This document shows positions 1 through 52,476 of a DNA stretch of 64,000 nt, piece by piece (within the stretch, counting starts at the first letter, position 1; each line of letters opens with the position of its first letter). The position numbers and the translations under genes are program-made. Location of the stretch: contig OZ024765.1 in NCBI GenBank assembly GCA_964016885.1, forward strand, positions 9,548,001-9,612,000, given 5' to 3'. Under the pieces are notes generated by a model, which did not search any database, was not told where the DNA came from, and was given only the letters and a program-made list of their open reading frames with translations. The DNA comes from Eledone cirrhosa. Its lineage: Eukaryota.

Positions 1-200
1 AAGCCTAAATCCATTCAAGTCAGTGCCCCAGCATGGCCAGTCTAATAACTTAAACCAGTAAAAGGATACAATCATGGCTATGCCCCAGCATGGCCACAGT
101 CTAATGACTGAAACCAGTAAAAGAATACAAGACTAAAACCCTTCAAGGTGGTGCCCCAGCATGGCCACAGTCTAATGACTGAAACCACTTATAGAATAAG
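1..200 (+). repeat. Three tandem copies of a SINE-tail-like unit (GTGCCCCAGCATGGCCACAGTCTAATGACTGAAACC)
   Basis: Direct repeats at about 23, 81 and 152; related sequence near 54009. Confidence 0.6.
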
Positions 201-228
201 AAACTACCAAAATATGAGATATACATAC

Positions 229-380
229 CTGTCATAGCATTCATAAACGTAGCCAGGGATCTATTGAGCATCTTGAAGAACGGGTCCCGTACGGGAAACT
301 TCCTGGAACCACACAGGACGGTGTGTTCCAGAATGTGGGGTACTCCGGTGCTGTCCATTGGAGTTGTACGGAACATAACA
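229..380 (-). CDS. PITRM1: PITRM1 coding exon 4 (M16C metalloprotease HXXEH motif); gene continues beyond the left edge
   Basis: [50 protein letters not shown] contains the inverted zinc motif HILEH; AG and GTATG boundaries, 152 nt. Confidence 0.97.
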
Positions 381-502
381 CTATGGAGAACGATGTTGAT
401 AGAAAGAAAAAAAATTTTATGATGAATTTTTCAAATGATTTTCATTAATGTAAGGAGCCTTATATCTTAACTAGCACAGGGCCTCATTTCTCCTAAACCT
501 GG

Positions 503-15251: not shown

Positions 15252-15389
15252 CATCAGTCCAGCTTCTACACTAGCATGGGTTAGACGGGTTGTCCCATTT
15301 GAGGCAGGTTGGGTCAGGTGACCATATCCTGCTCATACAGAAGTTTTTCTGGCTTGGTTTCTACAGCTGGATACCCTTCCTAATGCCAA

Positions 15390-16905
15390 CCACATTTACA
15401 GTGTGGACTGGGTGCTGTTTGCCTTGACACCTACAAAACCACTTTACAGTGTGGACTGGGTGCTGTTTGCCTTGACACCTACAAAACCACTTTACAGTGT
15501 GGACTGGGTGCTGTTTGCCTTGACACCTACAGAACCACTTTACAGTGTGGACTGGGTGCTTTTTGCCTTGACACCTACAGAACCACTTTACAGTGTGGAC
15601 TGGGTGCCTTTTGTCGTGACACCTAAACAACCACTTTACAGTGTGGACTGGGTGCTGTTTGCCTTGACACCTACAGAACCACTTTACAGTGTGGACTGGG
15701 TGCCTTTTGTCATGCCACCTACACAACCACTTTACAGTGTGGACTGGGTGCCTTTTGTCATGACACCTACACAACCACTTTACAGTGAGTACTGGGTGCT
15801 TTTTGTCATGACACCTACAGAACCACTTTACAGTGAGTACTGGGTGCTTTTTGTCATGACACCTACAGAACCACTTTACAGTGTGGACTGGGTGCTTTTT
15901 GCCTTGACACCTACAGAACCACTTTACAGTGTGGACTGGGTGCTTTTTGCCTTGACACCTACAGAACCACTTTACAGTGTGGACTGGGTGCTTTTTGCCT
16001 TGACACCTACAGAACCACTTTACAGTGTGGACTGGGTGCTTTTTGCTTTGACACCTACAGAACCACTTTACAGTGTGGACTGGGTGCTTTTTGTCATGAC
16101 ACCTACATGACCACTTTACAGTGTGGACTGGGTGCTTTTTGTTGTGACACCTACATTACCACTTTACAGTGTGGACTGGATGCTTTTTGTCATGACACCT
16201 ACATTACCACTTTACAGTGTGGACTGGATGCTTTTTGTCATGACACCTACAGAACCACTTTACAGTGTGGACTGGATGCTTTTTGTCATGGCACCTACAG
16301 AACCACTTTACAGTGTGGACTGGATGCTTTTTGTCATGACACCTACACAACCACTTTACAGTGTGGACTGGATGCTTTTTGTCATGACACCTACACAACC
16401 ACTTTACAGTGTGGACTGGATGCTTTTTGTCATGACACCTACACAACCACTTTACAGTGTGGACTGGATGCTTTTTGTCATGACACCTACACAACCACTT
16501 TACAGTGTGGACTGGGTGCTTTTTGTCATGACACCTACACAAACACTTTACAGTGTGTGCTGGGTGCTTTTTGTCATGACACCTACACAACCACTTTACA
16601 GTGTGGACTGGGTGCTTTTTGTCATGACACCTACACAACCACTTTACAGTGAGTGCTGGGTGCTTTTTGTCATGACATCTACAGAACCACTTTACAGTGT
16701 GGACTGGGTGCTTTTTGTCATGACACCTACACAAACACTTTACAGTGTGTGCTGGATGCTTTTTGTCATGACATCTACAGAACCACTTTACAGTGTGTGC
16801 TGGGTGCTTTTTGTCATGACATCTACAGTGTAGATGTCATGATTCTACACGACCACTTTATAGTGTGTGCTGGGTGCTTTTTTTGTGACACCTACATGAC
16901 CACAT
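15390..16905. repeat. 48-bp minisatellite array (about 30 copies)
   Basis: TTTACAGTGTGGACTGGGTGCTTTTTGTCATGACACCTACACAACCAC; preceded by the reverse-complement RTE-type tail. Confidence 0.95.
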
Positions 16906-17047
16906 GTTAGCAAGTGTGTGTGTTAAGTATAAATGTATATATGTATGAATGTGTATATGTATATATATGTATGCATATATGTATATATGAATATACACAA
17001 ACATTACACAAGCATGTGTGTATCATTCATCACCATCCTGTTCTATA

Positions 17048-20310: not shown

Positions 20311-20373
20311 TGATATATATATATATAGCCGCCGAAATGGCTTGAGCTCTGCCGTTGGGTTCCTGAACATTTT

Positions 20374-20419
<46 letters not shown>

Positions 20420-21103
20420 TTATATTATATATATATATATAGGAAAATGTTCAGGAACCCAACGGCAGAGCTCAAGCCATTTTGACGGCTATTTCTGGAC
20501 AGAAATAGCCGTCGAAACAGCTTGAGCTCGGGCGTCGGGGTCCTGAACATTTTCCTATTACCCACTCTACTACCCAAAGTATCAAGTACTCTGGTGCATT
20601 ATGGTCCACCTAGTTCCTTACCACTCTTCCTTCGTTATATATATATATGTATATATATATATATAAAAGACGTAAAATAAGAAAATAAAAAAAAATAAAA
20701 ATAAAAATTTTTTTTAAATTAACTTACTTACTTAAATTTTCACTCCAACTAATTAGTTTCTGCAATGGGATAAAGACAGTTACGTAATGAACTGTTGAGA
20801 ATTTCATTGCGTCATCAGGGAGGTCATTCTCAGCCAAGTCTCCAGGCAATGCGCGGACACTGGGGACTCATATAAAAATAATAATAATTCAGTAAATGGA
20901 ACAGCTATCGAGGACTGGATTCCAGGTACTGAAAAATCTCACTGCCACTGGTCATATGGCCGATTCTAAAGAATCAATCACGTGACACAGAGGCTAGTCA
21001 GTAGGAATGGGATGGTAAGATGACAGACGCCTACTAACACCCCCAAAAAAATTTAGAAGTGGTTTTGGCAGGTTTGCTCGACAAATCAGTGATTTGGAGA
21101 TAA

Positions 21104-24187: not shown

Positions 24188-24440
24188 TCAAAAAGGTTTA
24201 TTTTCCATCACTGTCTTCCAGTCATCTACATTTTCTCGTCCAAGGAATTTCAATAATTCGAAGTAGGAAAATACAAAAGCCCGAGTGATGGCCTGATTGT
24301 GCATAAGCCCAAGAGATTCTGCTTGCAGTGTGTGATTGAACCGTAGTCTCTCTTCCAGCTCAGCCAAGTGACGGGCTTTCTCTCGGGCCAATTGTATTGC
24401 CTCTTCCATCATCTCTTTGGCCTCCTGTTCTCTTCGTAAC
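24188..24440 (-). CDS. KIAA2012: KIAA2012-like terminal coding exon R
   Basis: TTCAG|LRREQEAKEMMEEAIQ...NQAITRAFVFSYFELL...KPF-TGA; the terminal R-x-x-V-F-S-Y-F motif resembles the KIAA2012/DUF4670 C-terminus as I recall it. Confidence 0.85.
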
Positions 24441-25165
24441 CTGAATGAAAAACATTTAGATATTATATTTTGAGCGAGATAGATAGAGAGAGAGAAAGAG
24501 AGGGATGTGGGATGTTTTTTTTTTGTGGGTGGGGTGGGGGTGGGGGGTTTATTGATCGATTGACAAGATCTCAGATTTCATTCGCTTACTGATTGGAATG
24601 GAAGTCATCAAATCAGACCAAGGAAAAAAGGTTTCTATTGGTCTTTCCATTACTTATTCTATCTATTGGTGTTAATATGCCTGAATAGGGAAATATGGAT
24701 AGTCTGAGAGAAAACCTGGGTATAAGAGGAATTAAATGTAGTGTGCAAGAGAGAAAACTGTGCTGGTATCGACATCTGATGTGTATGGATGATGATTGTC
24801 ATATTAAAAGGATCTAGTTCATCATATCAACCCCAATACTTATTTTTAATAACATTTTTTTTTTAAGTCTGATAAATATTTTATCAATGTCTGCTTATCA
24901 AACTGCTATGTTATAGGACATAAACACAGACAAATGCAAACATAGATACGGAAACACGCACACATACAAACACATGGACATACACACACATACACACTGA
25001 TCACCCCCCAATGCATATTTCATTCTATCGTTTCTTTCAAATCTGATACATATTTTATCAGAAGCTGCTTGTCGAACTTCTAAGTTACAGGACATAAACA
25101 CATAGATGAGGATGCACACACAGACTCACACTTCTTTGTGTGTCTGTGTGAAGTACTGTCTAGTA

Positions 25166-25341
25166 CAGTGGTTGCTAACCAGTGGTCTGCACACCACTGG
25201 TAGTCCGAGACAAAACTTTGGTGGTCCGCAGAAAAATTTTAATGTATTTATTTTATTTTTTTTTAATTGCTATTAGTAGTCAGCGAGATTTAAAATTATG
25301 AATTTAGTGGTGCATGAGGTACGAAAGGTTGGTGACCTTTG
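25166..25341. mobile_element. hAT (Charlie-like) MITE
   Basis: TIRs CAGTGGTTGCTAACC / GGTTGGTGACCTTTG; imperfect 8-bp TSD GTCTAGTA / ATCTAGTG. Confidence 0.7.
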
Positions 25342-25355
25342 ATCTAGTGTATTAC

Positions 25356-25506
25356 CGTTTTTTTTCTTCTTCACGCAAGCGTACTTCTTCCTCCATCTTT
25401 TTCTTCATTTCATATTCCAGACGTTCCTGCGACTCCATTTGAAGCAACTTCTCCTGCTCTGCTCTCTGTGCCTCCTCTTCCATCTCTCGTTGGCGCACCA
25501 ACAACT
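25356..25506 (-). CDS. KIAA2012: KIAA2012-like exon Q (coiled coil)
   Basis: TAACAG|ELLVRQREMEEEAQRAEQEKLLQMESQERLEYEMKKK...EEEKK|GTAAT; phase 1->2. Confidence 0.88.
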
Positions 25507-25748
25507 CTGTTAGCGAGAAGAGAGAGACTGAAGTATATTATATATACAAACCTCCACCTACTTCTCACCCGTCTATTTTTCACTCCCACCTTACTACATT
25601 CAACATGCCCAATCTCAAATCATTTCTCTGCCAAGAGATGGCAACATGAATGGATGAACCTGTTATTTTTCTCTAAAAACAATTTTTACAATTCCACCCT
25701 GCCCCTCCCTTCAATCTATCTAATTTCTCATTCTTTTTTTTTTTTTTT

Positions 25749-25783
25749 TTTCTGATGAAGGACTAGCCTCCGAAACGTTAAGA
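25749..25783 (+). ncRNA. Minimal hammerhead fold (GAAACGTTA type)
   Basis: CTGATGA-A-GGA CTAGCC TCC-GAAA-CG-TTA-AGA; weak stem I. Confidence 0.5.
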
Positions 25784-25876
25784 CTCTCTTCTTGCTATTT
25801 CAAGCGTTAACCTAATATATTCCTTCCATATAATGTACCGATTGTGTTGTTATTTCTGTTTACCTTTTACATACTT

Positions 25877-25925
<49 letters not shown>

Positions 25926-26064
25926 CAATTCTGATTCTTTTTTAATTGAGTTTGAATTATTTTTCCCACATCTTACGTTAACTATTTTCCCATTTTGACG
26001 CTATAGTCACTTATATATTATGGAATACTGTTGGCTTCTTGCTACAATACTTTCTATACCTTTC

Positions 26065-26124
<60 letters not shown>

Positions 26125-26306
26125 ATATTTGGGGAGGGTCATGTTGTTATAATATTGCTAGAAATATATAGTAAAATATACTCACTGTTTGGTTTAGGTT
26201 GGTTTTCACTTGAGTATATTTTATATTTCTATAGTTAATTCAGCTGACAATCAATGTTTATCATTGATTGACCAACAGTTAAAAATATAGATATAGATAT
26301 AGTTTC

Positions 26307-26346
26307 TCAGAGTTCTTTCATCACACACCTGTGACATCATCAGTGA
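26307..26346 (-). ncRNA. Minimal hammerhead fold, same design as 2958-3000
   Basis: Minus strand reads TCA-CTGATGA-T-GTCAC AGGTGT GTGAT-GAAA-GAAC-TC-TGA. Confidence 0.62.
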
Positions 26347-26469
26347 TATTATTATGTTTCCTCCTGTTGTATTATATATATGCATATATATAGATATATC
26401 ATCACTTTATGTCTATTCTATGCTTGCGTGGATTAGATGGGTTTTGTTTACATACATATATATGTAAAG

Positions 26470-26924
26470 GTTTGTAAAGGTAAGAGACCACCTCACAAGC
26501 CAAAGCTCCAATTCAAGGATTATGTAAGGGATTCATTGAAAAAAACTGGTTTGATGGTGGCTGACTGGGAGATAGGAGCTCTTGAAAGAGAAACTTGGCG
26601 TGGAATGGTGAATGATGGGGTCCATAATTTTGAGGACAGATGCATAGAGCACAAGAAGATCAATGCCCTGGTGTGTATCTCTCGATTGAATTGGTGTGCC
26701 CTGAGTGTGGAAAGGTGTGCTTGAGAAAATCTGGTCTCAGGAGCCACAGTCGCAGCCATGTTGAGAGAGAACCAGTGAACTATGATCTCCATGATATTGC
26801 GAGGGTTCACAGGCAACCTTATACAAGACCTGGGGCCAGGGAAGTCCATAGTTGTCGTCAATGTGCGAAGGAGTGCAAGTCTCTAGCAGGCTTGAAAAGC
26901 CATATCCAAGCATCACATATCTGA
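26470..26924 (+). mobile_element. RTE-like LINE 3' end with C2H2-type zinc-finger tail
   Basis: GKRPPHKPKLQFKD...W...A.ER..WR, then CPECGKVC...GLRSHSRSH and CRQCAKEC...GLKSH. Confidence 0.75.
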
Positions 26925-26991
26925 ATCTGACAAGCAATTGCAATACTCTTAGCAGAGTTTGCAGCCATCTTGTATATGTATACATACTTAC

Positions 26992-27164
26992 CCCGACGTC
27001 GACGTTCTTCATCCAACTGCTTCATTTTTAGTTGGTGAAGCTTCCTCGCATGCTCTTCCTTCCTCTTCTTCTCAGTCTCAGCCTCCTGAACCCTGCGTCG
27101 CTCCACCTCTTCCTCTTCTGCCTCTTTCCGGCGCCGTTCCTCCTCTATCTGTTGTCTACGCAAC
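26992..27164 (-). CDS. KIAA2012: KIAA2012-like exon P (E/R/K coiled coil)
   Basis: TTGTAG|LRRQQIEEERRRKEAEEEE...DEERRRR|GTAAG; phase 2->1. Confidence 0.88.
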
Positions 27165-28399
27165 CTACAAGACATCAGTGATGGCTGAGATTTAAACTGC
27201 AAATCATATCAGACATTATAAAGACGTATTTCAGATTAGATTTTACTCTTTAAACCAGTCGTATCTGGCCAGAATTCTCTCATCTCTTTCTGTTCAAATC
27301 AGCTATAACCAGCCACCCATACTGATGTTAAGGTATTGTTCTCAAAATAAATAACATCAAAATCTTGTAGATTCGATATTATGTGAAGTAAAGCTTTTAC
27401 CGTGAAAATACAATAGTATCATCATCATCATCATCATCAACGTTTAACGTCCATATTCCACGCTTGCATGGGTTTGGACAGGAGTTTTCCCACTTGAGGC
27501 AAGAGTGGTTGTCTTGCTCGCATAGGACTGTCTGGCGGGTTTTCTACAGCTGGATGCCCTTCCTAACACCAACCACATTTACAGTGTGGAACTGGGAGGT
27601 TTTTACCGTGTTACCTACACAGCCACATTACAGCGTTTGTTTCGGGCTGGATGTTGTGGTACCAACATAACTTTACATTGAAAGGGGTGGTGTGGATGGG
27701 ATGGGATGGGGGTGTATTTTGTTAGAGGTGCCTACTGACTGTAGTAGGTTTCACTTTGTACTTAGGCAAGGCAAGTCTTCTTTATTACTGTGTAGCACCA
27801 AAGATCTCGGTCCAGTGACATTGTCTTGGAGAGGTGTAAGTGTGTGAGGTCGGAATTTATCAAGTCATCCCAGGTTTTTCTGGGTCTGCCTACTCCTTGG
27901 CTACCGTCTATTTTTATTGCCCTGCACTTTTTTATACAGCTATCGTCTTTAATGTAAATGCTAAAGGGTTAAACATGGGTATGCAGAGAGCTGGAACAAA
28001 TACCGCAAACTACTTAATCCAGTTCTCTAACAACCAACAATTCATTGGTGACTGAAAATAACAATAGGGGCAGGGTTTCTAATTTAGGCACAAGGCCAGC
28101 AATTTTCCATGAGGTTTTTTTTTTTGGTATTCGAATGATAGTGGTCCCGATTCCTATCATGTTGTTTGTTACACTTCATACCTATATAGGTTTAGCTGAC
28201 TTCCTACAATGTTGTATCTCATAAAAGATTTCTTTGCTGTTTTAATCATAATGGCCCCAGTCCTATCATGTTGTTACAGTAATGCACTGGGATAATTGCT
28301 GGCCTTGTGCTAATAGTAAAAACAATTATTATTGTATACAATACAATTAGAGTTCAGAGATGAGCCAAAATCAAAACAGCTCAAGGTTTCCACACTTAC

Positions 28400-28614
28400 C
28401 TCCCTTCTTCCTCCTGTAATAAACGCTGTATTTCCATTTCCTCACGAATCTTTTCTTGGTGTTCAGCAGCTTTTCTTTCACGCAAAATTTGCTCTTCTCG
28501 TTCCTTTCGCTTTCTTTCTACCATCTCGCGCTGTTTCATTGCTCGAGCTCTCCTGTCAGCAGCCCGAGCATCTTTCATGGAAATTGAATTTGGTAGAGTG
28601 ACATCCTCAACTGT
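28400..28614 (-). CDS. KIAA2012: KIAA2012-like exon O (coiled coil)
   Basis: TTGCAG|TVEDVTLP...ARAADRRARAMKQREMVERKRKEREEQ...EEG|GTAAG; phase 0->2. Confidence 0.88.
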
Positions 28615-29671
28615 CTGCAATTAATTAGTTGTTGTAATTAACTCTTGACATCCTGTTTCCACATGAAACCACATTAGCAAAACATTCATCATCATCTTCA
28701 TTTAACATCTGCTTTCCCTGCTAGTGGAGGTGCATGGCCTAGTGTTAAGGATGTTGGACTTACGATCATAATGTTGTAGGTTCAATTCCTTGGCTGGGTT
28801 GCATGTTGTGTTCCTTATGTTCTTGAGCGAAACATTTCATTTCCTATTGCTCAGTATACTCAGTTGAAAATGAGTACCAGCAATAGCCTGGGGTTTAATC
28901 CTGCAATGGACCGGCATCTTGTACACTATCACTTCACGCCATGAAACTGGGATAAGCACTGGCCTAACCTTTTAGCATTCACATTATTTTATATATACTA
29001 TTATATTTTCATGGTAAAGGCTTTACCTCACATAATATCTCACATAACATTCACATTACTCTATATATACTATTATATTTTCATGGTAAAGGCTTTACCT
29101 CACATAATATCTCACATAACATTTACATTACTCTATATATACTATTATATTTTCATGGTAAAGGCTTTACCTCACATAATATCTCACATAACATTTACAT
29201 TACTCTATATATACTATTGTATTTTCATGGAAAAGGCTTTACCTCACATACTTATGCCACATAATATCGAATCTATGAGATTTTGAAAGTATTTATTTTG
29301 AGAACAATACCTTAACATCAGTTTGAGCGACCAGTTACAGCCAGTTTCAACAGAAAGAGGTAGAGAATTCTGGCCGTTTTTGAACATTAAAGGGTTAAGA
29401 CAGACTTTAGACTAGACTTTCCCAGATAGCAAGGGTTGAATGGGTGTACATAGACAAAGTCAGTACAGAAGCAGGGTTACTGAACTCCCAGACAGGCTGA
29501 GGAATCTGCATCGCACTTACATACAGAAAGTACAAAACAACATTATGACTACAACACATTAATACTGCAAATTTGCTCAACAATCTGTCCACTAGTAAAA
29601 ATATTATAAACATTTGAATTAACAGATCACATGGAACCACATTAGCAAGACATTGTTGAAAAGTAGATTTC

Positions 29672-30165
29672 CTGTCACCACAGTGCCAGACGCATTCCAT
29701 GCCATGCTGCCCTCAACGAGGTCATTAAGCATGGCTTGGACGCTGCAGGCTTCCCTTCCCAGCTCGAGCCAGTGGGGCTGGACCGAGGGGATGGCAAAAG
29801 GCCAGATGGCATGACCATCTTCCCGTTCTGAGGTGGCAAACCCCTTATCTGGGATGCCACTTTCACCGACACTTTCTGCAGCCGCAACCTGGTGCAGTCT
29901 GCGACTGACCCAGGTTCTGCTGCACGTCGGGCTGAGGGGGCCAAACTCCTCAAATACTGGTCCCTCTCCGACAGGTTTGCAGTCGTACCCCTGGCAGTGG
30001 AGACTTCTGGTGTCCTCGGCCCCAGGGCTACCTCCTTACTCACCACCATAGGCGCTGAGCTGGCCAGCCGCAGGTGTGAGCCCCGCGAGTTGGAGTGGCT
30101 TTTCCAGCGCGTCTCCCTTGCCATCCTCCGGGGAAACGCCTTCTCCATTCTGTATGCCGGGGTTG
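29672..30165 (+). mobile_element. CRE-like non-LTR retrotransposon 3' fragment (restriction-like endonuclease)
   Basis: RHAALNEVI...LEPVGLDRGDGKRPDG...WDAT...KY...PLAVETSG...FQRVSLAILRGNA; one stop codon; a second fragment lies at about 42234-42350. Confidence 0.85.
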
Positions 30166-30494
30166 TGGGTGGGCCCCATCGCGTACCAATACATTTGTTA
30201 AATACCATTCTTTTATCTGATATAACACCAATAGATATTATATATTTTTTTTTAAAATAATAATAATTTATCAACACTATGACTACATCACATTAAATAT
30301 CAAATCCCGCCGAGGTTGACTTTGCCTTTCATCCTTACGGGGTTGATAAAATGAAGTAGCAGTAATGTACTGGATAATTGCTGGCCTTGTGCCTAAAGTA
30401 GAAACAATTAAATATTAAAGTCTTTACTGTAAAACAGCAACTGCTCCACAATAATCTGTCCACTAGTAAAGATGCTATAAACATCTGAACAACA

Positions 30495-30981
30495 TCAATG
30501 ACAACAACAACAACAATAACAACAAAATAATGACGACAACAACAACAACAATATTGAAACAGCAACAATATTGACAACAACAACAACAATAACAACAAAA
30601 TAATGACAACAACAACAACAATATCGAAACAGCAACAATATTGACAACAACAACAAAATAATGACAACAACAACAACAACAACAATAACAATAACAACAA
30701 AATAATGACGACAACAACAACAACAAAATAATGACAACAACAAGAACAATAACAAAATAATGACAACAACAACAATAACACCAACAACAATAACAACACC
30801 AACAACAATAACAACAATATAATGACAACAACAACCACAACAACAACAACAACAACAACAATAACAACAACAATAATGACAACAACAACCACAACAACAC
30901 CAACAACAATAACAACAATATAATGACAACAACAACCACAACCACAACAACAATAACAACAATATAATGACAACAACAACC

Positions 30982-31013
<32 letters not shown>

Positions 31014-31165
31014 AACAACAAAATAATGACAACAACAACAACAAAATAATGACAACAACAACAACAACAACAACAACAATAACAACAAAATAATGACAAC
31101 AACAACAACAATAACAACAGCAACAATAACAACAACAACAGCAACAACAACAACAACACCACCAC
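30495..31165. repeat. (CAA)n-rich microsatellite
   Basis: Seen directly; intronic. Confidence 0.9.
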
Positions 31166-31195
31166 CTGAAAGATATGAGGTACAGCAAGTCTGAC

Positions 31196-31465
31196 CTTGT
31201 TCACCACCTCTGCTGTTACAACTGCAGCTTTCTCTTCTGTCGACATTAAAATACGTCTCAACTCCTTTTTAATGTCCAACTCTTCCTGCAGATCTGCTGC
31301 TGCTGAGCAATTCTGTTTTGAAATGTCTTCAGCCATATTATCATCATCATCATCATCATCATCTTCTTCTTCTTCTTCTTCTTCTTCTTCTTCTTCGGTG
31401 TCTTCTTCGTTTAGCTGTTGGCCTTCTATATCATCCTCTCCGTAGCTTATATACCCACCTTTGTC
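31196..31465 (-). CDS. KIAA2012: KIAA2012-like exon N (acidic)
   Basis: TTACAG|DKGGYISYGEDD...polyE/D...ELDIKKELRRILMSTEEK...VVNK|GTCAG; 270 nt, phase 0->0. Confidence 0.8.
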
Positions 31466-31486
31466 CTGTAAGAGTCAAAATTAACG

Positions 31487-32048
31487 ATGGTGATGGTGGT
31501 GGTGGTGGTGGTGGTGATGGTGGTGGTGGTGGTGGTGGTGATGGTGATGGTGGTGGTGGTGGTGATGGTGATGGTGATGGTGGTGGTGGTGGTGATGGTG
31601 GTGGTGGTGGTGGTGGTGGTGGTGATGGTGGTGGTGATGGTGGTGGTGATGGTGACGGTGATGGTGATGGTGGTGATGGTGACGGTGATGGTGATGGTGG
31701 TGATGGTGATGGTGATGGTGATGGTGACGATGGTGGTGATGGTGGTGGTGATGGTGATGGTGATGAGGATGGTGATGGTGGTGATGGTGACGATGATGAT
31801 GGTGGTGGTGATGGTGACGGTGGTGACGACGATGGTGACAGTGATGGTGATGGTGACGATGATGGTGGTGGTGACGATGGTGATGGTGATGGTGGTGATG
31901 GTGACGATGATGATGATGGTGACGGTGATGATGATGGTGATGGTGACGGTGACGATGATGGTGACGGTGGTGATGATGATGATGATGATGATGGTGACAA
32001 TGATGATGATGGCGATGGTGATGGTGATGTTGACGACAGTGACAATGC

Positions 32049-32080
<32 letters not shown>

Positions 32081-32150
32081 GCAATGATGGTGATGATCAT
32101 CATAACAATGAGGATGATGGCGATGGTGATGGTGATGATGATGACGGTGA
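31487..32150. repeat. (GGT/GAT)n microsatellite
   Basis: Seen directly; fills most of the intron between exons M and N. Confidence 0.9.
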
Positions 32151-32219
32151 CACAAGACATTAATTACAAAATTTAAAAGAAATAATAAATAAAATATGAA
32201 CACAATTGAGTCTTCTTAC

Positions 32220-32533
32220 CAATTCCTTTCTCTGCTTGTGATGGAAAACAGCAGAAGATACACCATTCTCACTGTCTACATCATCAATGTCGTCCTGAGT
32301 TAAAGTCTGAATTCCATGATCTGAAGATCTGTTGAACAAGTTCCTTTGTTTTTCTGAGTTTATAGATGAATTCAAATGGTCTGTAATCACCTCCATCATT
32401 TTAATGCTGGACCAGCTTCCAGTATTTTCAAAATGGCTGCTGGATTTTGTTTCAGCAGAAGACAGCTTTCTGTGTCTGACATGCCTGTTCTTTGATTTCT
32501 TTGGTTTACGATGTTTCTTGGATTTGAAATTGT
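32220..32533 (-). CDS. KIAA2012: KIAA2012-like exon M
   Basis: TTTCAG|NFKSKKHRKPKKSK...MMEVITDH...KQRKEL|GTAAG; phase 1->0. Confidence 0.8.
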
Positions 32534-33023
32534 CTGAAAATGGTTGGTGAGATTATATAGGTTATATATATATATATGATAAAATGTGATAGATTTCTGC
32601 AGTTTTACAATCAGAAGATAGAAATAAACATCATTAAAGAAAATATATATATATATATATAGAGGCACATGGCTTAGTGGTTAGAGCATTGGCCTTGCAA
32701 TCGAAAGGTTGGGAGTTCAATTCTTAGACCGGGTGATGTGTTGTTTCCTTGAGCAAGACACTTTATTTCACATTGCTCCAGTTTACTCAGCTGTAGAAAT
32801 GAGATGATAGGGACTGGGTTCCCTATCATTCCACTGCAAAGTGGACGTGTAGGCGCCACAGCAAAAAAGCACCCAGCACTCACTGTAAATGAGGTTGGTG
32901 TTAGGAAGGGCATCCAGCTGTAGAAATCAAGCCAGAATCAGTTCCCGTCCCACCCTTGCAAGCAGGGAAAAGTGGACGTAAAATGAAATGATGATGATGA
33001 TATATATATATATATATATATAT

Positions 33024-33219
33024 AGCGAAGGAAATGTGGTAAGGCACCAGATGGACCATAACGCACCAAAGTACTCAATACTTAGGGTAGTAGAGTGGGT
33101 CATAGGAATGAGTAGGACCCCGACGGCTGAGCTCAAGCCGTTTCGACGGCTAATTCTGAGTCCAGCATTAGCCGTCGAAACGGCTTGAGCTCAGCCGTCG
33201 GGGTCCTACTCGTTCCTAT
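33024..33219. repeat. Dispersed ~200-bp element ending in a long hairpin
   Basis: ~52-bp inverted arms within 33102-33219; homologs at 20325-20636, 50668-50843 and about 14508-14620. Confidence 0.8.
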
Positions 33220-33664
33220 ATGTATATATATATATATTGTTATACTTTGGGAGGGTCATGTTGCCAATAAGAAACACACAGTTATAAATTTCCAGTTGGT
33301 TGGTTCCACAAAGAAAAACACACATAGACACCTGGATGTAACACATGCGCAAACTAAGCACACAACACACACAAAAACAAGATGGCGTAGGACAGAACAA
33401 AGGAGAGGCACAAAACAAAGAAAAGAATCCCCAGTCACTGAAGTGGTCACAGAATGTGTGATGAAAGATGGTGGTGGTGGTGTTGTTGGTGGTGGTGTTG
33501 GTGGTGGTGGTGGTGGTGATTTTGTTGGTGGTGTTGTTGTTGTTGGTGGTGGTGGTGATTATGATGATGTTACAAATAAAGTCTCAGTGCTTGTCTGGGA
33601 GTGTGGGAAAGGATTGGGAGGGGTCACTAAATGGTAGTTATGTCATGTGGTCACACATACTTAC

Positions 33665-33832
33665 GTTTTGAACTGACTGACGTTGTTGACGTTCTCTCTC
33701 TCTCTTTCTTTTGCGTTTTCTGTTTGTTATTGTTGTTGTTGCTGTTGCTGTTGTTGCTGTTGTTGTTGTTGTTGTTGCCATTCTCCACAGCAGAATACAG
33801 CTGTTTCATTTCTCCAGAATAATCGACTCGAC
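33665..33832 (-). CDS. KIAA2012: KIAA2012-like exon L (poly-Asn)
   Basis: CCCAAG|RVDYSGEMKQLYSAVENGNNNN...SVSSK|GTAAG; 168 nt, phase 1->1. Confidence 0.7.
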
Positions 33833-33915
33833 CTTGGGAGGAACATGAAGAGATATGAGTAGAAGTGGCAGTGATGGTTGTAAGAGAGAAACAGAGGGAC
33901 AAAGAGGAAGAGGGA

Positions 33916-34753
33916 TATGGTATGGTATGGTATGCTATGGTATGCTATGGTATGGTATGGTATGGTATGCTATGGTATAGTATGCTATGATATGCTATGC
34001 TATGGTATGGTATGCTATGGTATGCTATGGTATGCTATGCTATGGTATGGTATGCTATGCTATGGTGTGGTATGCTATGGTATGGTATGGTATGGTATGG
34101 TATGGTATGCTATGGTATGCTATGGTATGGTATGGTATGGTATGCTATGGTATGCTATGGTATGCTATGGTATGGTATGGTATGGTATGCTATGGTATGC
34201 TATGGTATGCTATGGTATGGTATGGTATGGTATGCTATGGTATGCTATGGTATGCTATGGTATGCTATGGTATGGTATGGTATGGTATGGTATGGTATGG
34301 TATGCTATGGTATGCTATGGTATGGTATGGTATGGTATGCTATGGTATGGTATGGTATGGTATGGTATGGTATGCTATGCTATGCTATGGTATGCTATGC
34401 TATAGTATGCTATGGTATGCTATGCTATGGTATGCTATGGTATGCTATGGTATGCTATGGTATGCTATAGTATGCTATGCTATGGTATGCTATGCTATGG
34501 TGTGGTATGCTATGGTATGGTATGCTATGCTATGCTATGGTGTGGTATGCTATGGTATGGTATGCTATGCTATGCTATGGTATGGTATGCTATGCTATGG
34601 TGTGGTATGCTATGGTATGGTATGCTATGCTATGGTATGCTATGCTATGCTATGGTATGGTATGGTATGCTATGCTATGGTATGGTATGGTATGCTATGG
34701 TATGCTATGCTATGCTATGGTATGCTATGCTATGCTATGGTATGGTATGGTAT
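33916..34753. repeat. (TATGG/TATGC)n pentanucleotide satellite
   Basis: Seen directly in the sequence. Confidence 0.95.
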
Positions 34754-34918
34754 AGTCCCATAACTCCTGACGGAGTCGTAGGGGCGTCACAATGGCATAC
34801 AGTGTTTCTTGGACATTTTTTTAAAAGCCTGGCAAAGCCTATCCCTCTCCAAGTTTGAACACCGCCTATTTCTTCCAGCTGGTATGGTATAGACCTGTAA
34901 CTCCTGAGGAGTCGTAGG

Positions 34919-35077
34919 CAGGGCCGTCTTAACGCATGGGCATGCTGGGCAACTGCCCGGGGGCCCCACGAGGATAGGGGGCCCATTTGTATTTTTATTC
35001 CTGTGAGTGGTTGTCTAGGTAGGGGCCCCAGTTCTCTGCTTTGCCCGGGGGCCTATAATGCTGTTAAGACTGCCTTG
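34919..35077. mobile_element. hAT (Tip100-like) MITE with perfect 8-bp TSD
   Basis: TIRs CAGGGCCGTCTTAAC / GTTAAGACTGCCTTG; TSD GTCGTAGG at 34911-34918 and 35078-35085. Confidence 0.88.
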
Positions 35078-35654
35078 GTCGTAGGGGCACCATATTGACA
35101 TGCAGCGTTTCTAAGGCATTTTTAAAAGCTGGTGGAGCCCATCTCTTCTCCAAGTCTGAATACAGTAGATTTCTTCCAGAGAAGGATAGAGAGTGAGAGA
35201 GAAGAAGTGAAAGAGAGATATAGAGGAAAAATTGACCCCAGTTCTTGACTGGTATTATTTACTAATTTTTAGGGTGGTGGATTGGCAGTATCGGTAGAGG
35301 GTCGGACGCCATGCTTTGACGTATAGAGTTACAGCCCTTGCCATTCTGAGTTCAAATCCCGCTGAGGTTAACTTTGCCTTTCATCCTTACGAGGTCGATA
35401 AAATAAAGTACCAGTAATGCACTGGGTAATTGCTGGCATTGTGCCTAAAAGTAGAAACAATTATTTTTCCTGCCGAGGTTGACTTTGCTTTTCATCCTTA
35501 CGGGGTCGATAAAATAAAGTACCAGTAATGTACTGGGTAATTGCTGGCCTTGTGCCAATAGTAGAAACAATTATTTACTATTTTTTATCAACCTGGAATG
35601 GATGAAAGACAAAGGAACATTAAACAGGAGTTATGCTTTAAAAAGCTTACTTAC

Positions 35655-35859
35655 TGATTTTAAATCCATCTTTCTTCGGAACTGAAGATTTTTGTGCTGG
35701 TTTCAAACCAACTTTCTGGTAGTTCACCTTCAAGGGTTTCTTGTGGCTTCTTTTAACAATGGAAGACACCTTCTTCTTCATTGGTTTTGTAGGTATTGTT
35801 CGACGACGACTCTTGGCAATGGATTCTGATTGTGTTTTGGGTTGTATATTATCATTGAG
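35655..35859 (-). CDS. KIAA2012: KIAA2012-like exon K (Lys-rich)
   Basis: CCCCAG|LNDNIQPKTQSESIAKSRRR...KKDGFKI|GTAAG; phase 0->1. Confidence 0.75.
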
Positions 35860-37129
35860 CTGGGGTTTGGAACATAACATAACAAAGGTTCTTACATAGA
35901 ATTACGATGGAAGATTTTTAGATAAATATATACACTTTAGCCCCTTTCATTACATAAGGCCAATAATCAGTTTGTATACAGTTAGCAGGGCTCACAAACA
36001 CTGTACCTCCCCCACAGCACAGGTATTGCCCCTCACAGGCATCGCCCCCTCACTCAGAGCACAGGCACTTCACCCTCACAAGGCAGACATCACCTCTGCC
36101 TCACAACACAGACATCACCTCTGCCTCACAACACAGACATCACCTCTCCCTCACAACACAGACATCACCTCTCCCTCACAACACAGGCACTACCCCTAAC
36201 AGCCACAAACACTGCCCATAACATGCACAGGCACTAGCCCTCACAGGTACCACATTTCAGAGGCACAAACACTGCTTCTCCTTCACGGGCATTGCCCCTC
36301 TCCCCCGACCCTTCCCTCATAACACAGGCACCCCTCCATCACAGGCATCACCTCTCCCTCCCAACACAGGCACTAACCTTTCCTCACAGGCATTGCCGCT
36401 CTATCTCAGACCCCCCCCCCCCCCGCCTCATAGATCCTGCTCCTGCACAGGCCTCATCCCTCCCTCGCAACACAGGCCTCATCCCTCCCTCGCAAGCATT
36501 GCCGCGCTCTTTCCCAAACCCTGTCCTCCCCCTCACAGATCCTGCTCCACCCTCACAGTACAGGCGCCACCCCTTTCTCACTAAACTAAAGAGTAAAAAA
36601 TAATTGTTTCTACTTTAGGCACAATGCCAGCAATTACCCCAGTGCATTACTGGTACTTTATTTTATCGACCCCGTAAGGATGAAAGGCAAAGTTAACCTG
36701 GGCGGGATTTGAACTCAGAATGGCAAGGGTCGTAACTCTATGCGTCAAAGCATGGCGTCCGACCCTCTACCGATACTGCCAATCCACCACCCTCTGTGAG
36801 GGCTAGTGCCTGTGCATGTTATGGGAAGTGTTTGTGGCTGTTAGGGGTCGTGGATTAAAAGATAATTGTTTCTACGTTAGGCACAAGGCCAGCAATTACC
36901 CAGTGCATTACTGGTACTTTATTTTATCGACCCCGTAAGGATGAAAGGCAAAGTCAACCTCGGCGGGATTTGAACTCAGATCGTAAAGGGACGTAACTAT
37001 GCTGGAAAGCATGGCGTCCGACCGTCTACCGATACTGTCAATCCACCGTCATTGTGGATTAAAGTGGATTAAAAGATAATAAAGTGGATAAAAACAAAAA
37101 AGACCACCAAAAACAACGTATTGTCTTAC

Positions 37130-38343
37130 CCTATTAGACTTGTCATAAACCACACCTGCATCACTGGTTGGGGTCTGTACAACCACCACAATGTCCCCTA
37201 TTGTGTTTGTTACTGCTGGGGTCTCCGTTTGAACCCCTGTCAGCAGCTGGGTGTGTCCTGCACTAATAACTTCTTGGACATCTCCGTCTCCGTTTCCGTC
37301 GTTCTGATTGACGAACGAGAACGACGTGTCTTTTGTCGGGATTTCTCCGAGAATTGACGCAACTTTCTTCTCCGAGACATCCCTCTCTTCCGTGTCACCG
37401 TCACCGTCACCGTCACCAACACCGTCACCATCACTGTCACCAACACCAACACCACCACCGTCACCAACACCATTACCAACACCAACACTGTCACCAACAC
37501 CAACACCGTCACCAACATTGTCACCACCACCGTCACCATCACCATCACCACCACCGTCACCAACACCGTCACCATCACCGTCACCATCACCGTCACCAAC
37601 ACCATGAGGAAGAAAATGATCATCATCATTATCATCACCATCATATGGATCACCACCACCACCATCAGCATCATCATCATCATCATCACCACCATCACCA
37701 TTGTCATCACCGAGGCCAACAACCACTGAAACATCATTATTGCGATCATCATCATCATCATCATCATTATCATCATGATGATGTGCATCCTTTACTTTCT
37801 CTTTTCCTTCTTCTTTGCTTCTTCCTCCTCCTCCTCCCCCTCCTCCTCCTCCCCCTTCCTCCACCCCCACCCCCACCACAACGTATCCCTTGTCTATTCG
37901 AGTATTTGCTTCTCTGTGTCTCATCTCAATTGGTCCCTCCATCTTCACAGCCTCGTCATCACCACCATCATCATAATCGCCATCATCACCATCATCATCA
38001 CCATTACTCTCATGATGATGATGATGATGATGATGATCATCATCATCATCATCATCATTATCATCATCACCACCACCACCGTCATCATCAAATGATATCA
38101 CACATTTCTCTTTCTGCATATCTTTCTCTATGACATCATGTTGTTGATGGTATTGTTGTTGTTGTTGTTGTTGGTGGTGGTGGTGCTGTTTCTGTAGCCG
38201 TTGTTGTTGTTGCTGTTTTAGTTGCCGTTTTTGTTGTTGTTGTTGTTGTTCCTGTTGTTGTTGTTGTTGTTGTTTGTGGTGGTGGTTGTGTTGGTGTCTG
38301 GTGAAGGGTGTAACCAGAGGAAGAAGAATCTGAGGTGGTATTT
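37130..38343 (-). CDS. KIAA2012: KIAA2012-like exon J (1214 nt; Q/H/D/G low complexity)
   Basis: TTCCAG|[18 protein letters not shown]...polyQ...MQKEKCV...polyD/G...VVYDKSNR|GTAAG; open throughout, phase 1->0. Confidence 0.72.
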
Positions 38344-38729
38344 CTGGAATAGATAAATAGATAGAGAGATAGATGGAGAGAGAAATAGGCTAACAGACAG
38401 ACAGACAGACAGATGGACAAACAGTCTCCAAGGATACTTTATCCAATTTCCTTGGTGTTAAGTGTCTGAGAATATAAGGCATCCTCTGAACAGGACATCA
38501 AACTCGCAACCTCCCGATTACGAGTCCAATTCTCTGACCACTAAACCAACTGCCTTCACTGAGAGAGTATAAGGGGAGGAAAAATGAGGCCATTTACAGC
38601 TTCTACTGTAAATCTAGAACTGTACACTAGACTATTTGTGACACTAAAATATGAGATTATTTTGAATTTTTTTGTTTGCTTTGTTTTCTTGTTTTTTTTT
38701 GTTGTTTTTTGTTGTTTTTTTTTACAGAT

Positions 38730-39200
38730 CATACCTTCAGTATTTATGCCAACCCTTAACTATGGTCCTGGATCTTCGGTAATGACTGAAAGAATAGAAT
38801 TGCGAATACAAGTGGCCAAAATGAGATTCCTCTGAAGGGTCTTTGGAGTAACATTACTCGGTAAAGTGTGTAACTCGGAGATCAGAGAGTCATTCGAGGT
38901 AGAGCTGCTACTTCTCCGAATTAAGAGATCACAACTCTAATACTATGGACATGTGGTTAGAATGTCTCAGGAAAGAATCACTGGACAGATTTTACAGACA
39001 AAAACCAACTGGCAGGAGACATCGGGGTAGACCCTGAGCAGGATGATTGGATAACATCCTTGAGCTTGGCTGGTCACACTTGGGTATCCAGCCAGATCAG
39101 TTGGAGACGGTTGCTTCTGAGAGGACCTGTTGGAAGGTATGTTGAGGACTCTGCTCCACAACCCTCTCAGGAATAAGTGGGCAAAGAAGAAGATGATGTT
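38730..39200 (+). mobile_element. Old RTE-like LINE 3' fragment
   Basis: FMPTLNYG...RIQVAKMRFL...YGHVVRM...RGRP remnants. Confidence 0.75.
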
Positions 39201-39217
39201 GATGATGATGATCTCAC

Positions 39218-39308
39218 CCTCTTTGTCTCTTTCTTCTGTTTCCATTGAGCTGTCAACTGAATAATCAGCATTCTGAAACAAGACATGTGACACTTCTCGA
39301 CTTATTGC
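39218..39308 (-). CDS. KIAA2012: KIAA2012-like exon I
   Basis: TCACAG|AISREVSHVLFQNADYSVDSSMETEERDKE|GTGAG; phase 0->1. Confidence 0.8.
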
Positions 39309-39355
39309 CTGTGAAAAATATAGAAAAAAAATGAACAAAAAGCTATAGATAGAAC

Positions 39356-39396
<41 letters not shown>

Positions 39397-39885
39397 GAGA
39401 GAGAAAGAGATGTAAAATCCTTACGTATAGTATATATGTGTATATAGTATATATACATATATGAGTTGTGACAACAATGGTGTCAAGCTGTATCAGCCAT
39501 TGCGTTTCCCTTGGACAACATCCTTTATGTATAAAGTCGGTGCTGTTTTGTATTTTCCAAGAATGTCTTACTAATGTAGTTTTTGTAGTTTGTTAATTCA
39601 AATGTTTATAGTATCTTTACTAGTGGACAGATTGTTGTGAAATTTTAAAGTATTAGAGCAAAGACTTTAATGTTTAATGTGATGCAGTCATAATACCGTT
39701 TTGTAAGGAGATTTTATGTGGTACAGACTTAATAATGGATAGATCTGTGTGAAAATTTGTAGTATTAAAGTAAAGCATTTAATTTTTAATGTGATACAAT
39801 CATAATACTACTTCGTACAAGAATGTTTTACTAATATGATTTCTTGTGGTAGAGGAAGTTAAGAGTTAAAATAGAATCAACTCAC

Positions 39886-40016
39886 TCTGATGTCAGAATC
39901 CAAACTTAGGCCAGATCCTTCTTGTTCAAGAACAAAACTAGCCATCTTTTGAGCATTTGTGGTTAATATCTTCATCACTTCAGATGCTGATAGGGCTGCA
40001 GTTGAATTATGTTTCT
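39886..40016 (-). CDS. KIAA2012: KIAA2012-like exon H
   Basis: TTACAG|EKHNSTAALSASEVMKILTTNAQKMASFVLEQEGSGLSLDSDIR|GTGAG; phase 1->0. Confidence 0.8.
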
Positions 40017-47547: not shown

Positions 47548-47623
47548 TATATACACATAGATATGTTGATTTAAAACTGCACTATCCACAAGTGTTTTTT
47601 AGCCTTCATATCATGTTCTCCTG

Positions 47624-47690
47624 TTTTATCTGATGAAAACGCAAATATTATTGCATGATGATGTTTGTTTTTGAAATGCGCATAATAAAA
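47624..47690 (+). ncRNA. Type I hammerhead ribozyme fold, intact core
   Basis: Stem I TTTTAT/ATAAAA; CTGATGA; 16-bp stem II (four G-U, one mismatch); GAAA; palindromic stem III ATGCGCAT; AUA cleavage triplet. Confidence 0.8.
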
Positions 47691-47835
47691 TACATGGAAC
47701 TCCTTTAACCATCTTTTGATCTTATATTATATATATATATATATATAATGAAAAATTGAACAGGGACAGAACAGAGAGGCAGTACGATAAATGTTTATTA
47801 AATTCACGCTCAGGAGAGTGGGGGGTAGGTGGGGG

Positions 47836-50490: not shown

Positions 50491-51382
50491 GGTGTGTTAC
50501 AACACACCTGATAGGAGTGGAATGTATAGCAACAGACCATAGCAACAGACATTTTGCAACAACAACAACAACAACAGTATTCTTTGACATACCACACACA
50601 CCCACACATATACACACATACATACACACACACACATGTATGTATATATATATATATATATATATATAGGGAAAGGTTAAGAGCTCAAGCCGTTTCGATG
50701 GCTATTATCCAGAAATAGCCATCAAAACAGCTTCAGCTCTGCCGTCGGGGTCCTGAACTTTTTCCTATTACCCACTCTACTACCCAAATTATTGAGTACT
50801 CTGGTGCGTTATGGTCCATCTGGTTCCTTACCACACTTCCTTCATCATCATCATCATCATCATCATCACCGTTTTATGTCCGTTCTTCCACGCTAGCATG
50901 GGTTAGGCGGGTTGTCCTGTTGTGGGCAGTGTCTGGTCGGTTGACCATGCCCTGCTCATACAGGAACCGATTCTGGCTTGATTTCTACAGCTGGATGCCC
51001 TTCCCAACACCAACCTCATTTACAGTGAGTGCTGGGTGCTTTTTCGTGGCGCCTACACGTCCACTTTACAGTGTGGGCTGGGTGCTTTTTTGCCGTGGCA
51101 CCTCCACGACCACCTTGCTTCAGCTTGTACCCATGGGAGGTCGGGTACTCTATATTACTGCGTGACGCCAGAGGTCACGGTCGTGTGTCATCGCCTTTGA
51201 GAGGTGTAATTGGGTAAGGTCGGCTTTTATCACCTCATCCCAGGTCATCTTGGGTCTCCCCCACTCTGCGGCTTCCATTGACTTCTAGTGCTCTGCACCT
51301 TTTTATGCAGCTGTCATCCTTCATACGCATTCCATTGACGAGGAAGTTTCATTTACCTATGAAAAATATTTATTGCGTATTG

Positions 51383-51474
51383 ACCTGTTACGCGTGTTTC
51401 ACAGAGGATTGGCTCAAGGTGACCCATAGGAGTTATGGACCTGACTCCAGTATTGACCTGCTCCTCAGACTGGT
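51383..51474 (-). ncRNA. Type I hammerhead fold with long branched stem II
   Basis: Minus strand reads ACCAGT-CTGAGGA-GCAG[~53 nt]CTGT-GAAA-CACGCG-TA-ACAGGT. Confidence 0.62.
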
Positions 51475-52476
51475 GTTGTGACAAAAGAAGTATTTTTGTT
51501 GTGGTATGTGGCCTGAGAGGGTATATATATATATATATATATAGGCATCGGCCCTATTTTTTGTGTATGGGCGTTTTGTGTGTATTTGGGTGTAATTAGT
51601 GGGGTGGTAATGCAGGTGTGTATTCACCGATATTCATGAGCATATTTACAAAATGAGGGGTTTACTAAAATTATTAATTATTTAATTACTAAGATGGTAA
51701 GTTAAGAAATGGTTTATATATAAAATAATGTTGGAAGATTTTAATTTAAATTAGAATCCTGTATTTCAATTAATTAATGAAGAATTTTCAAGGATTTATT
51801 AAAATTTTTAATTACTTTATTAGTAAAATAATAATATATAGTTCTTATATAAAACTATGTTGGAAGATTTTAAATTAACCCTTTAGCATTTATATTGCTC
51901 TGGAACCCTGACTCCAGCCTGACTAGGAGTAGGAAGCTGTCATTCCCTGACGTTATCTCTAGGGATACGGGAATCAGCAGACAGGACGTGGGGGCAGCGA
52001 TGGAGGACAGGGGATTCTGGGGCATGAGAGTGAGATCCATCATCTCGACAGTAGTCGACGATGATGATGATTACTCTTTTACGCATTTTTATTACTCTAT
52101 ATATACTATTGTCTTTTAGTGGTAAAGGCTTTATCTTATATAATTATCTCACATAATATTGAATCTATGAGTTTTTGATATTATTCATTTTGAGAACAAT
52201 ACCTTAACACCAGTATGAGTGACCGGTTACAGCTGGTTTGATCAGGTGAGAGAATTCTGGCCAGATACAGCCAATTTAAATGCTAAAGGGTTAAAAAACA
52301 AGAACCCTTTAAAATGGATGGTTATATTTCATAAAACCAGAGCCAGTTTTGGCTGTGTTGGTATCAAAAGTGTTAAAACCTTCATAAAAATGACTCAAGA
52401 ATGATTTATTGTACAGGCTTAAGGATACCCCTCCTCCTCTCTCTCTCTTTCTCTCTCTCTCTCATATTGCCCCAGA

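Follow-up and report, generated by a model that had tools for sequence, protein, structure and literature searches.

Background

Small hammerhead variants of Penelope-like elements (PLEs) reportedly cleave as dimers, and hammerheads in the pLTRs of these retrotransposons are already known. Their function in PLEs is stated as unclear in the part of PMC8557442 considered here, which gives as marks of the Hydra clade an RWK-like motif, DKT, a CxCX5C linker and CxxC plus CxH near the C-terminus, describes the Naiad clade as being without canonical hammerheads and, in its search for ribozyme cores, allowed only 7-17 nt between the core halves. In the Poseidon element of Anolis, according to the portion of PMC11167929 considered, the hammerhead needs protein in order to cut, and insertion in vitro can do without it; reverse transcription has two internal start sites in the RNA, which set the tail, and uncut RNA is the main template.

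Here we consider a stretch of 64,000 nt from Eledone cirrhosa (contig OZ024765.1), the whole of which is called the window, in which a preliminary description had proposed two copies of a hammerhead with a long, branched stem II.

Two hammerhead copies in the window

Both motifs were found on the minus strand of the window, with the letters that the preliminary description had given (51383-51474, copy 1; 62658-62744, copy 2). Their parts and surroundings are as follows, with the basis of each assignment in brackets.

51469-51474, minus: copy 1, stem I 5' strand ACCAGU (window sequence; pairs counted in the family alignment)
51462-51468, minus: copy 1, core CUGAGGA, intact (window sequence)
51401-51461, minus: copy 1, extended stem II of 61 nt, predicted unbranched irregular hairpin (family folds and covariation)
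51440-51449, minus: copy 1, conserved module, 5' strand UGG-AG-UCAGG (alignment, family clusters, RNAalifold)
51423-51439, minus: copy 1, apical hairpin CCAUA/UAUGG, family-specific, of other sequence in every family (family folds)
51410-51418, minus: copy 1, conserved module, 3' strand CUUGA-G-CCA (alignment, family clusters, RNAalifold)
51389-51400, minus: copy 1, GAAA (51400-51397), short palindromic stem III ACACGCGU and GUA triplet (window sequence)
51383-51388, minus: copy 1, stem I 3' strand ACAGGU (window sequence and pair counts)
51338-51650, minus: 5'-truncated pLTR fragment assigned to a Hydra-clade Penelope-like element, family A, ends approximate (common to up to 29 other loci; coverage falls upstream; in L122 and L126 the family adjoins the end of an ORF that codes for an endonuclease)
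62658-62744, minus: copy 2, decayed hammerhead with CUGUUGA, U10.1·U11.1 and GUU (window sequence and family B majority)
62712-62721, minus: copy 2, conserved module, 5' strand (window sequence, family comparison)
62683-62691, minus: copy 2, conserved module, 3' strand (window sequence, family comparison)
62600-62789, minus: pLTR-like fragment of the older family B, ends approximate (family B copies)

Stem I of copy 1 has six positions with one A·A mismatch, and the 10.1-11.1 pair is G-U, as against G-C in the majority sequence of family A; stem III is likewise ACACGCGU in copy 1 and ACGCGCGU in that majority. The stem III letters CACGCG, then UA, precede the 3' strand of stem I, and the cut is predicted after 51389. 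Copy 1, whose core is intact, could still be competent. Copy 2 reads CUGUUGA (62740-62734), a 60-nt stem II region, GAAA (62673-62670), CAUAUG, UU and AUGU, and its core carries three faults: A6U, U·U at the base of stem II and the triplet GUU. Since the family B majority (CUGAUGA...GAAACAUAUGUA) is intact, copy 2 is a decayed member of that family and is probably dead; it scores 67.6 bits against the model built here, which contains copy 2 itself.

As single sequences, the copies fold no better than their shuffles (z +1.68 for copy 1 and +0.14 for copy 2). An Rfam scan of the window gave no hammerhead among the 150 of 251 matches listed, nearly all of which were microsatellites matching miRNA models, and a scan focused on copy 1 gave no RF00163 match and just a weak match to a CRISPR repeat. 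With weak single-copy folds and no Rfam hammerhead, the argument has to be made from the families: the two copies in the window are ordinary truncated insertions, and the interest lies in the family series.

Families and abundance in the genome

Using the two copies as queries against the 3.0 Gb genome, we collected 2,262 first-look candidates for copy 1 (family A), 40 of which were scored and found 88-94% identical, and 192 for copy 2 (family B), 73-83% identical. Family C comprises 2,446 candidates and family F 1,827, and the motif ACACUCUG at the 3' end of family F recurs in A, B and C. The homologs thus gathered, thousands of copies, agree with the dispersed-repeat carrier of the preliminary description; its two copies of one design are both present, as members of two related repeat families and not of a single one, the second with a broken core.

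The type I core CUGANGA/GAAA with a NUH triplet is found in copy 1 and in the majorities of families A, B, F, C' and H, where the stems also pair, so that the family consensus supports the hammerhead design; window copy 2 and a subfamily with the core CCGUCGA lack it. A pattern made of the core alone, with the core halves 45-70 nt apart, matched 2,438 times in the genome and 23 times in a reversed control, which puts the long stem II design beyond chance at the level of families. Thirty of these 2,438 loci were sorted: 15 have a GAGUCR/YGAGC module exactly 11 nt before GAAA, ten belong to a second design with stem III CCAUGG (see below) and five pass neither test. The pattern of module plus GAAAC gave 9,575 genome matches against 5 in the control and added families N and O.

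Metagenomes returned 13 matches, none with hammerhead stems on inspection, and a viral collection returned none; as such collections hold little animal DNA, this blank result is no proof of an octopod-only design.

Predicted fold of stem II and covariation

The stem II region measures 57-63 nt across the families. For the majority inserts of A, B, C (three subgroups) and F, the predicted fold is a hairpin that is interrupted but unbranched, with z scores against shuffles of -0.57 for A, which is not more stable than its shuffles, and of -1.9 to -3.1 for the others. The plan, read from the base, comprises a base of 5-8 bp, a GAU/AUC helix, a 2-nt bulge and a helix of 2-3 bp ending in G-C; towards the apex follow an AG/G loop, a UCRGG/CYUGA helix and a free apical hairpin. 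Across about ten families, stem II is accordingly predicted to be an unbranched, covarying hairpin with a fixed module.

Covariation was assessed on 33 copies from 10 labelled families, mostly those closest to the family majority, using 23 pairs of a structure derived from these same rows. Paired cells amount to 84.7%, against 76.3±0.9 in shuffles, and cells changed on both sides to 89, against 37.8±6.2, a number that reflects a few family-level events; none of 500 shuffles reached either value, though the cell counts are inflated by related rows. Controls in which the structure was slid along the alignment gave 28-38% pairing. By stem, pairing is 69% in stem I, 93% in the base of stem II and 95% in stem III. 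The shuffles were not beaten in the number of pairs with two-sided change (10 against 9.7) or in extra pair types (33 against 35.4). Two pairs inside the insert illustrate the changes, one being U-A in 11 rows and C-G in 12, and the next G-C in 9 and A-U in 18. RNAalifold returned no structure for the full 33-sequence alignment; given 14 inserts, it recovered seven module pairs unaided, two of them compensatory, at just -0.34 kcal/mol. A larger set of 92 rows (80.9% paired) had been fitted to the model and is given no weight. Covariation is present in all three stems and also within the insert, and the earlier reading of the stem differences between the two copies as covariation is thus borne out by the 33-copy alignment and by RNAalifold on the inserts.

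The branched form of stem II did not survive the same comparison. Its inner hairpin, GGAGU/ACUCC, is part of the minimum free energy (MFE) fold of copy 1 as a single sequence, about 9 kcal/mol below the fold constrained to the core. It can form in 19 of 46 family A copies and in none of the 61 copies of C, F and B (0/36, 0/17 and 0/8, respectively); being possible in one family only, and absent from the other three, it was rejected.

Stem III is a perfect 8-nt palindrome in 20/46 copies of A, 32/36 of C, 14/17 of F and 6/8 of B, with four sequences across the groups. A short palindromic stem III that differs in sequence from group to group is the signature of dimer-type PLE hammerheads, as these are described in the parts of PMC4209133 and PMC6765202 considered.

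Position relative to the neighbouring gene

Exons matching a PF15709 (DUF4670) protein, which we take to be KIAA2012, lie at window 24194-39969 on the minus strand; the closest database protein, from Octopus sinensis, is 72% identical over a query of 86 residues. The preliminary description had placed the hammerheads in the sense orientation of a KIAA2012-like pre-mRNA. The strand is indeed shared, but the first matched exon begins only 11 kb downstream of copy 1 and 23 kb downstream of copy 2, the matching protein starting at 39969, where it may be incomplete. That a branched stem II with the inner GGAGU/ACUCC hairpin forms in a ribozyme acting on this pre-mRNA is barely credible: the MFE fold of copy 1 and the common strand would fit it, and they are opposed by the restriction of the hairpin to some family A copies, by the position upstream of the first matched exon, by the decay of copy 2 and by the thousands of copies elsewhere. 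Among thousands of insertions, the link of these copies to a KIAA2012-like transcript is probably incidental.

Three other features of the window were recorded. At 146-430 (minus) an exon-like frame with a HILEH motif has a weak Peptidase_M16 match (E 0.29); at 20341-20476 a TA tract lies at the centre of a long perfect inverted repeat, probably the inverted end of a repeat element, which gives the top matches to miRNA models; and a tandem array of 48-nt units occupies 15272-16970.

The conserved module

The module reads GAGUCRG / YYGAGC and stands at a fixed distance, 11 nt, before GAAA. Its AG/G loop was located in 11 of the 13 clusters of two or more members, 55 singletons being left uncounted. 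The module sequence is constant while that of stem I varies freely between families, and the two halves keep their complementarity and register across apical hairpins of differing length and sequence. The AGUC/GAG part may bear a likeness to the bulged-G motif.

The module's own central pairs vary on one side or not at all, so the letters could be conserved as DNA, for instance as an internal promoter or an endonuclease recognition site of the pLTR, with pairing secondary. Such an account may draw on the promoters that reside in PLE pLTRs (PMC6765202, in the part considered) and on the place of the module in family C, about 250 nt upstream of the ATG; it is nevertheless improbable, as two-sided changes flank the module within the insert and its halves remain complementary and in register whatever the apical hairpin. 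A reading of GAGUCRGGUCC as a Pol III B-box was tried and rejected: the loose pattern did match tRNA-like SINEs, and the module is without the invariant A that the B-box consensus has.

Equally, the long stem II might descend from a chance insertion in one ancestral element, inherited by all families under little selection. The families are all related to one another, a stem II of 7 bp serves in the published Octopus family Hydra-1_oBim (PMC8557442, in the part considered), and no hammerhead-like match was found outside the genome, in the metagenome and viral collections. We hold this account to be very improbable, since the length of 57-63 nt and the module stayed fixed while stems I, IIa and III and the apical hairpin were rewritten with their pairing kept.

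The carrier element

Family A copies share one common 3' region and have variable upstream cut points, and 8 of 30 family A loci contain a partial partner copy on the opposite strand (L008 and L019 forming one pair). Walking upstream from the hammerhead of family A, we found a long low-complexity UTR and then a frame, now degraded, that encodes a CxCX5C linker and a YxGxI/T motif like that of GIY-YIG endonucleases; this ORF end shares its strand with the hammerhead in L122 and in L126, at distances of 1.8 and 1.1 kb. Only a degraded 3' part of the family A ORF is present, with CxCX5C there and CxxC plus CxH in other A copies. A search with the family A ORF fragment led to sister elements at 40-49% identity; the homolog search with this fragment found nothing.

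Family C has a related long hammerhead, with an ATG 191 nt past the predicted cut, and its copy in L177 contains an open frame of 861 aa with RW-R, DKT, CxCX5C, CxxC and CxH. Pfam named no domain in the ORF of family A or family C, and PF26215 is carried by many of 50 database homologs of the ORF. An ORF of reverse transcriptase (RT) and GIY-YIG endonuclease thus stands beside the repeat, as an intact frame in C and as a degraded 3' part in A, and the Penelope-like traits of 5' truncation, inverted partial copies and an optional 3' tail were all found. Because the motifs of L177 are the marks of the Hydra clade, the hammerhead is assigned to the pLTRs of Hydra PLEs; at the level of sequence, these motifs establish a Hydra-clade Penelope-like retrotransposon as the carrier of families A and C.

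Other carriers were considered and ruled out. For the Neptune clade, DKG and a CX2-5CxxC linker would be expected, and DKT and CxCX5C were found; for the Naiad clade, an N-terminal endonuclease, and the endonuclease motif begins at residue 746 of 861. The 3' end of Naiad_Ovul, in the part of the PMC8557442 supplement considered, is a different sequence. A non-LTR retrozyme would consist of short head-to-tail non-coding units, whereas families A and C join ORFs and occur singly or inverted.

L177 (1514-4099, plus strand) and L179 hold nearly complete members of family C, in which the frame is intact or long and a terminal copy is inverted; both would lend themselves to biochemistry. The upstream part of L076 is another repeat.

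Lapse of the core, ends of copies and possible role of the arm

In the C cluster, 26 of 37 copies have the core CCGUCGA and keep the module, a sample made up of the top matches of one young subfamily of family C that is about 97% uniform. Families N and O, which were found by a pattern requiring the module, keep it with C·A, U-A or A·A at 10.1-11.1 in place of G10.1-C11.1. Changes at A6 lower hammerhead activity (A6C; PMC3088659, in the part considered). The persistence of the module where the cutting core has changed suggests that the arm likely has a role other than catalysis, most plausibly binding of the element's RT-endonuclease.

The 3' ends of copies cluster 55-70 nt past the cut (34/70 in A, 18/69 in C, 18/34 in F and 10/20 in N), while many others reach the reference end. 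Among 74 secondary copies, not one begins exactly at the cut; the closest starts are at -3, -2 and +7.

In the mechanism that we propose, the RT-endonuclease of the element would grip the stem II module, reverse transcription would start about 55-66 nt beyond the predicted cut, in the zone in which the ends of copies accumulate, and its template would be mostly uncut RNA. Cleavage would be weak and optional, and the arm would serve as a recognition site near the start of reverse transcription. Any cleavage, to go by known PLE hammerheads, would be slow and would need two copies paired through the palindromic stem III, or the help of protein.

The extension of stem II might instead belong to the ribozyme proper, as a module for folding or tertiary contacts that docks on the interrupted stem I or on a dimer partner and speeds cleavage. 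Contacts between loop II and stem I are the usual accelerators of hammerheads (PMC3088659, in the part considered), the distance from module to GAAA is fixed at 11 nt and, in families A and C, stem I contains internal mismatches, all of which would suit such a function. What makes it rather unlikely is that the module persists with a CCGUCGA core or a lost 10.1-11.1 pair, and that the sequence of stem I is free to vary between families and that of the module is not. The module also sits more than 12 bp from the core, beyond the usual contact distance; loop II-stem I contacts ordinarily lie nearer the core than 12 bp.

With some reserve, we therefore favour the reading of these sequences as type I pLTR hammerheads of Hydra-clade PLEs whose stem II is a predicted unbranched hairpin of about 60 nt, with a fixed internal-loop module that would likely dock the element's own RT-endonuclease and would not be part of the cutting centre. 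A broader proposal, which is speculative, is that PLEs turned stem II into a conserved docking arm for their telomerase-related RT, an arm that would remain under selection while the cutting core lapses, the hammerhead serving as a scaffold; long arms missed by short-spacer searches might then also explain the 'half-core' Naiads, which are described as lacking ribozymes.

Other hammerhead-like motifs

The second long-stem-II design, to which ten of the 30 sorted core-only loci belong (its loci include L240, L241, L242, L252, L253, L259, L261 and L262), has a stem II of 47-59 nt with the base GUCCG/CGGAC, stem III CCAUGG and insert z scores of -3.3 to -4.8. It is unmatched by the model built here, and no ORF was linked to it. 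In L261 its units are direct repeats with a spacing of about 680 nt, a retrozyme-like arrangement, and tandem units were seen in this group only.

Hammerhead cores with spacers of 47-60 nt and unrelated inserts, one of each, were found at L069 2945 (minus strand), L256, L263, L280 and L281. Within the window, a further repeat resembling a hammerhead, its stem II 36 nt long and AU-rich and its stem III UGCGCA, lies at 47618-47696 (plus), with similar copies in L124 and L204; a hammerhead-like motif with a short stem II (17-nt insert) lies at 26343 (minus) and a decayed one at 61389-61461 (minus).

Comparison with known systems

Rfam RF00163 (Hammerhead_1) shares core and topology with the families described here. 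By its gathering score of 34, neither copy 1 nor any of eight related loci is a member of it, the best score being 17.2 bits, in one of the eight, with no match over copy 1. Listings of the open literature and the papers cited here gave no description of a long stem II with this module, nor does the covered part of a retrozyme preprint (10.64898/2026.07.22.740005) describe it; a word search of the PMC8557442 supplement, in the part considered, found none of the window-family sequences. The suggestion of an undescribed architecture holds to this extent, but the carrier is a known kind of element with known pLTR hammerheads.

The closest relatives are the Hydra-clade PLE hammerheads of PMC8557442, as far as that source was covered, which have in common with ours the type I layout, the pLTR position, the short stem III, the protein clade and flanks of TA repeats. 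The Hydra rows of its File S2 considered here, including Hydra-1_oBim, differ in having a stem II of 3-7 bp with a loop II of 3-10 nt, in contrast to 57-63 nt and a module. The minimal PLE hammerheads of PMC4209133, in the part considered, share the palindromic 15.2-16.2 pairs with loop 3, G10.1-C11.1, many families per genome and a predicted activity as dimers; their helix II is at most 7-8 bp, as against the 57-63 nt region here, and usually one additional base stands between 9 and 10.1, which families A, B, C and F lack.

Long spacers between core halves have been noted before in the part of PMC8557442 considered: one plant family, PLE-X1_sMoe, has a 35-nt loop II, and eight Naiads labelled 'HHR_half_core' have a spacing of 35-50 nt that was left unfolded; no conserved module is described there for either. 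We observed, by eye, that two Naiad consensus ends in the portion of its supplement considered (CUGAUGA-G, about 50 nt with complementary ends, C-GAAAC) look like complete long-stem-II hammerheads.

Anolis Poseidon (PAc), as described in the part of PMC11167929 considered, resembles the present families in its two alternative 3' ends (the 'tail') downstream of the hammerhead and in a template that is apparently uncut when copied; it differs in belonging to another clade, in an ORF that starts within stem II and in having measured activity.

About ten families with one stem II module, differing core integrity and one intact ORF form a natural series, in which the roles of the arm and of the catalytic core as the cis-acting part are directly testable. 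Long-stem-II hammerheads are a blind spot of current searches: given the miss by Rfam and the spacer of 7-17 nt allowed in the search described above, counts of invertebrate ribozymes and statements of absence from clades may need another look. Set beside the known systems, the PLE hammerhead with a long, conserved, unbranched stem II is a real, abundant and structurally supported variant.
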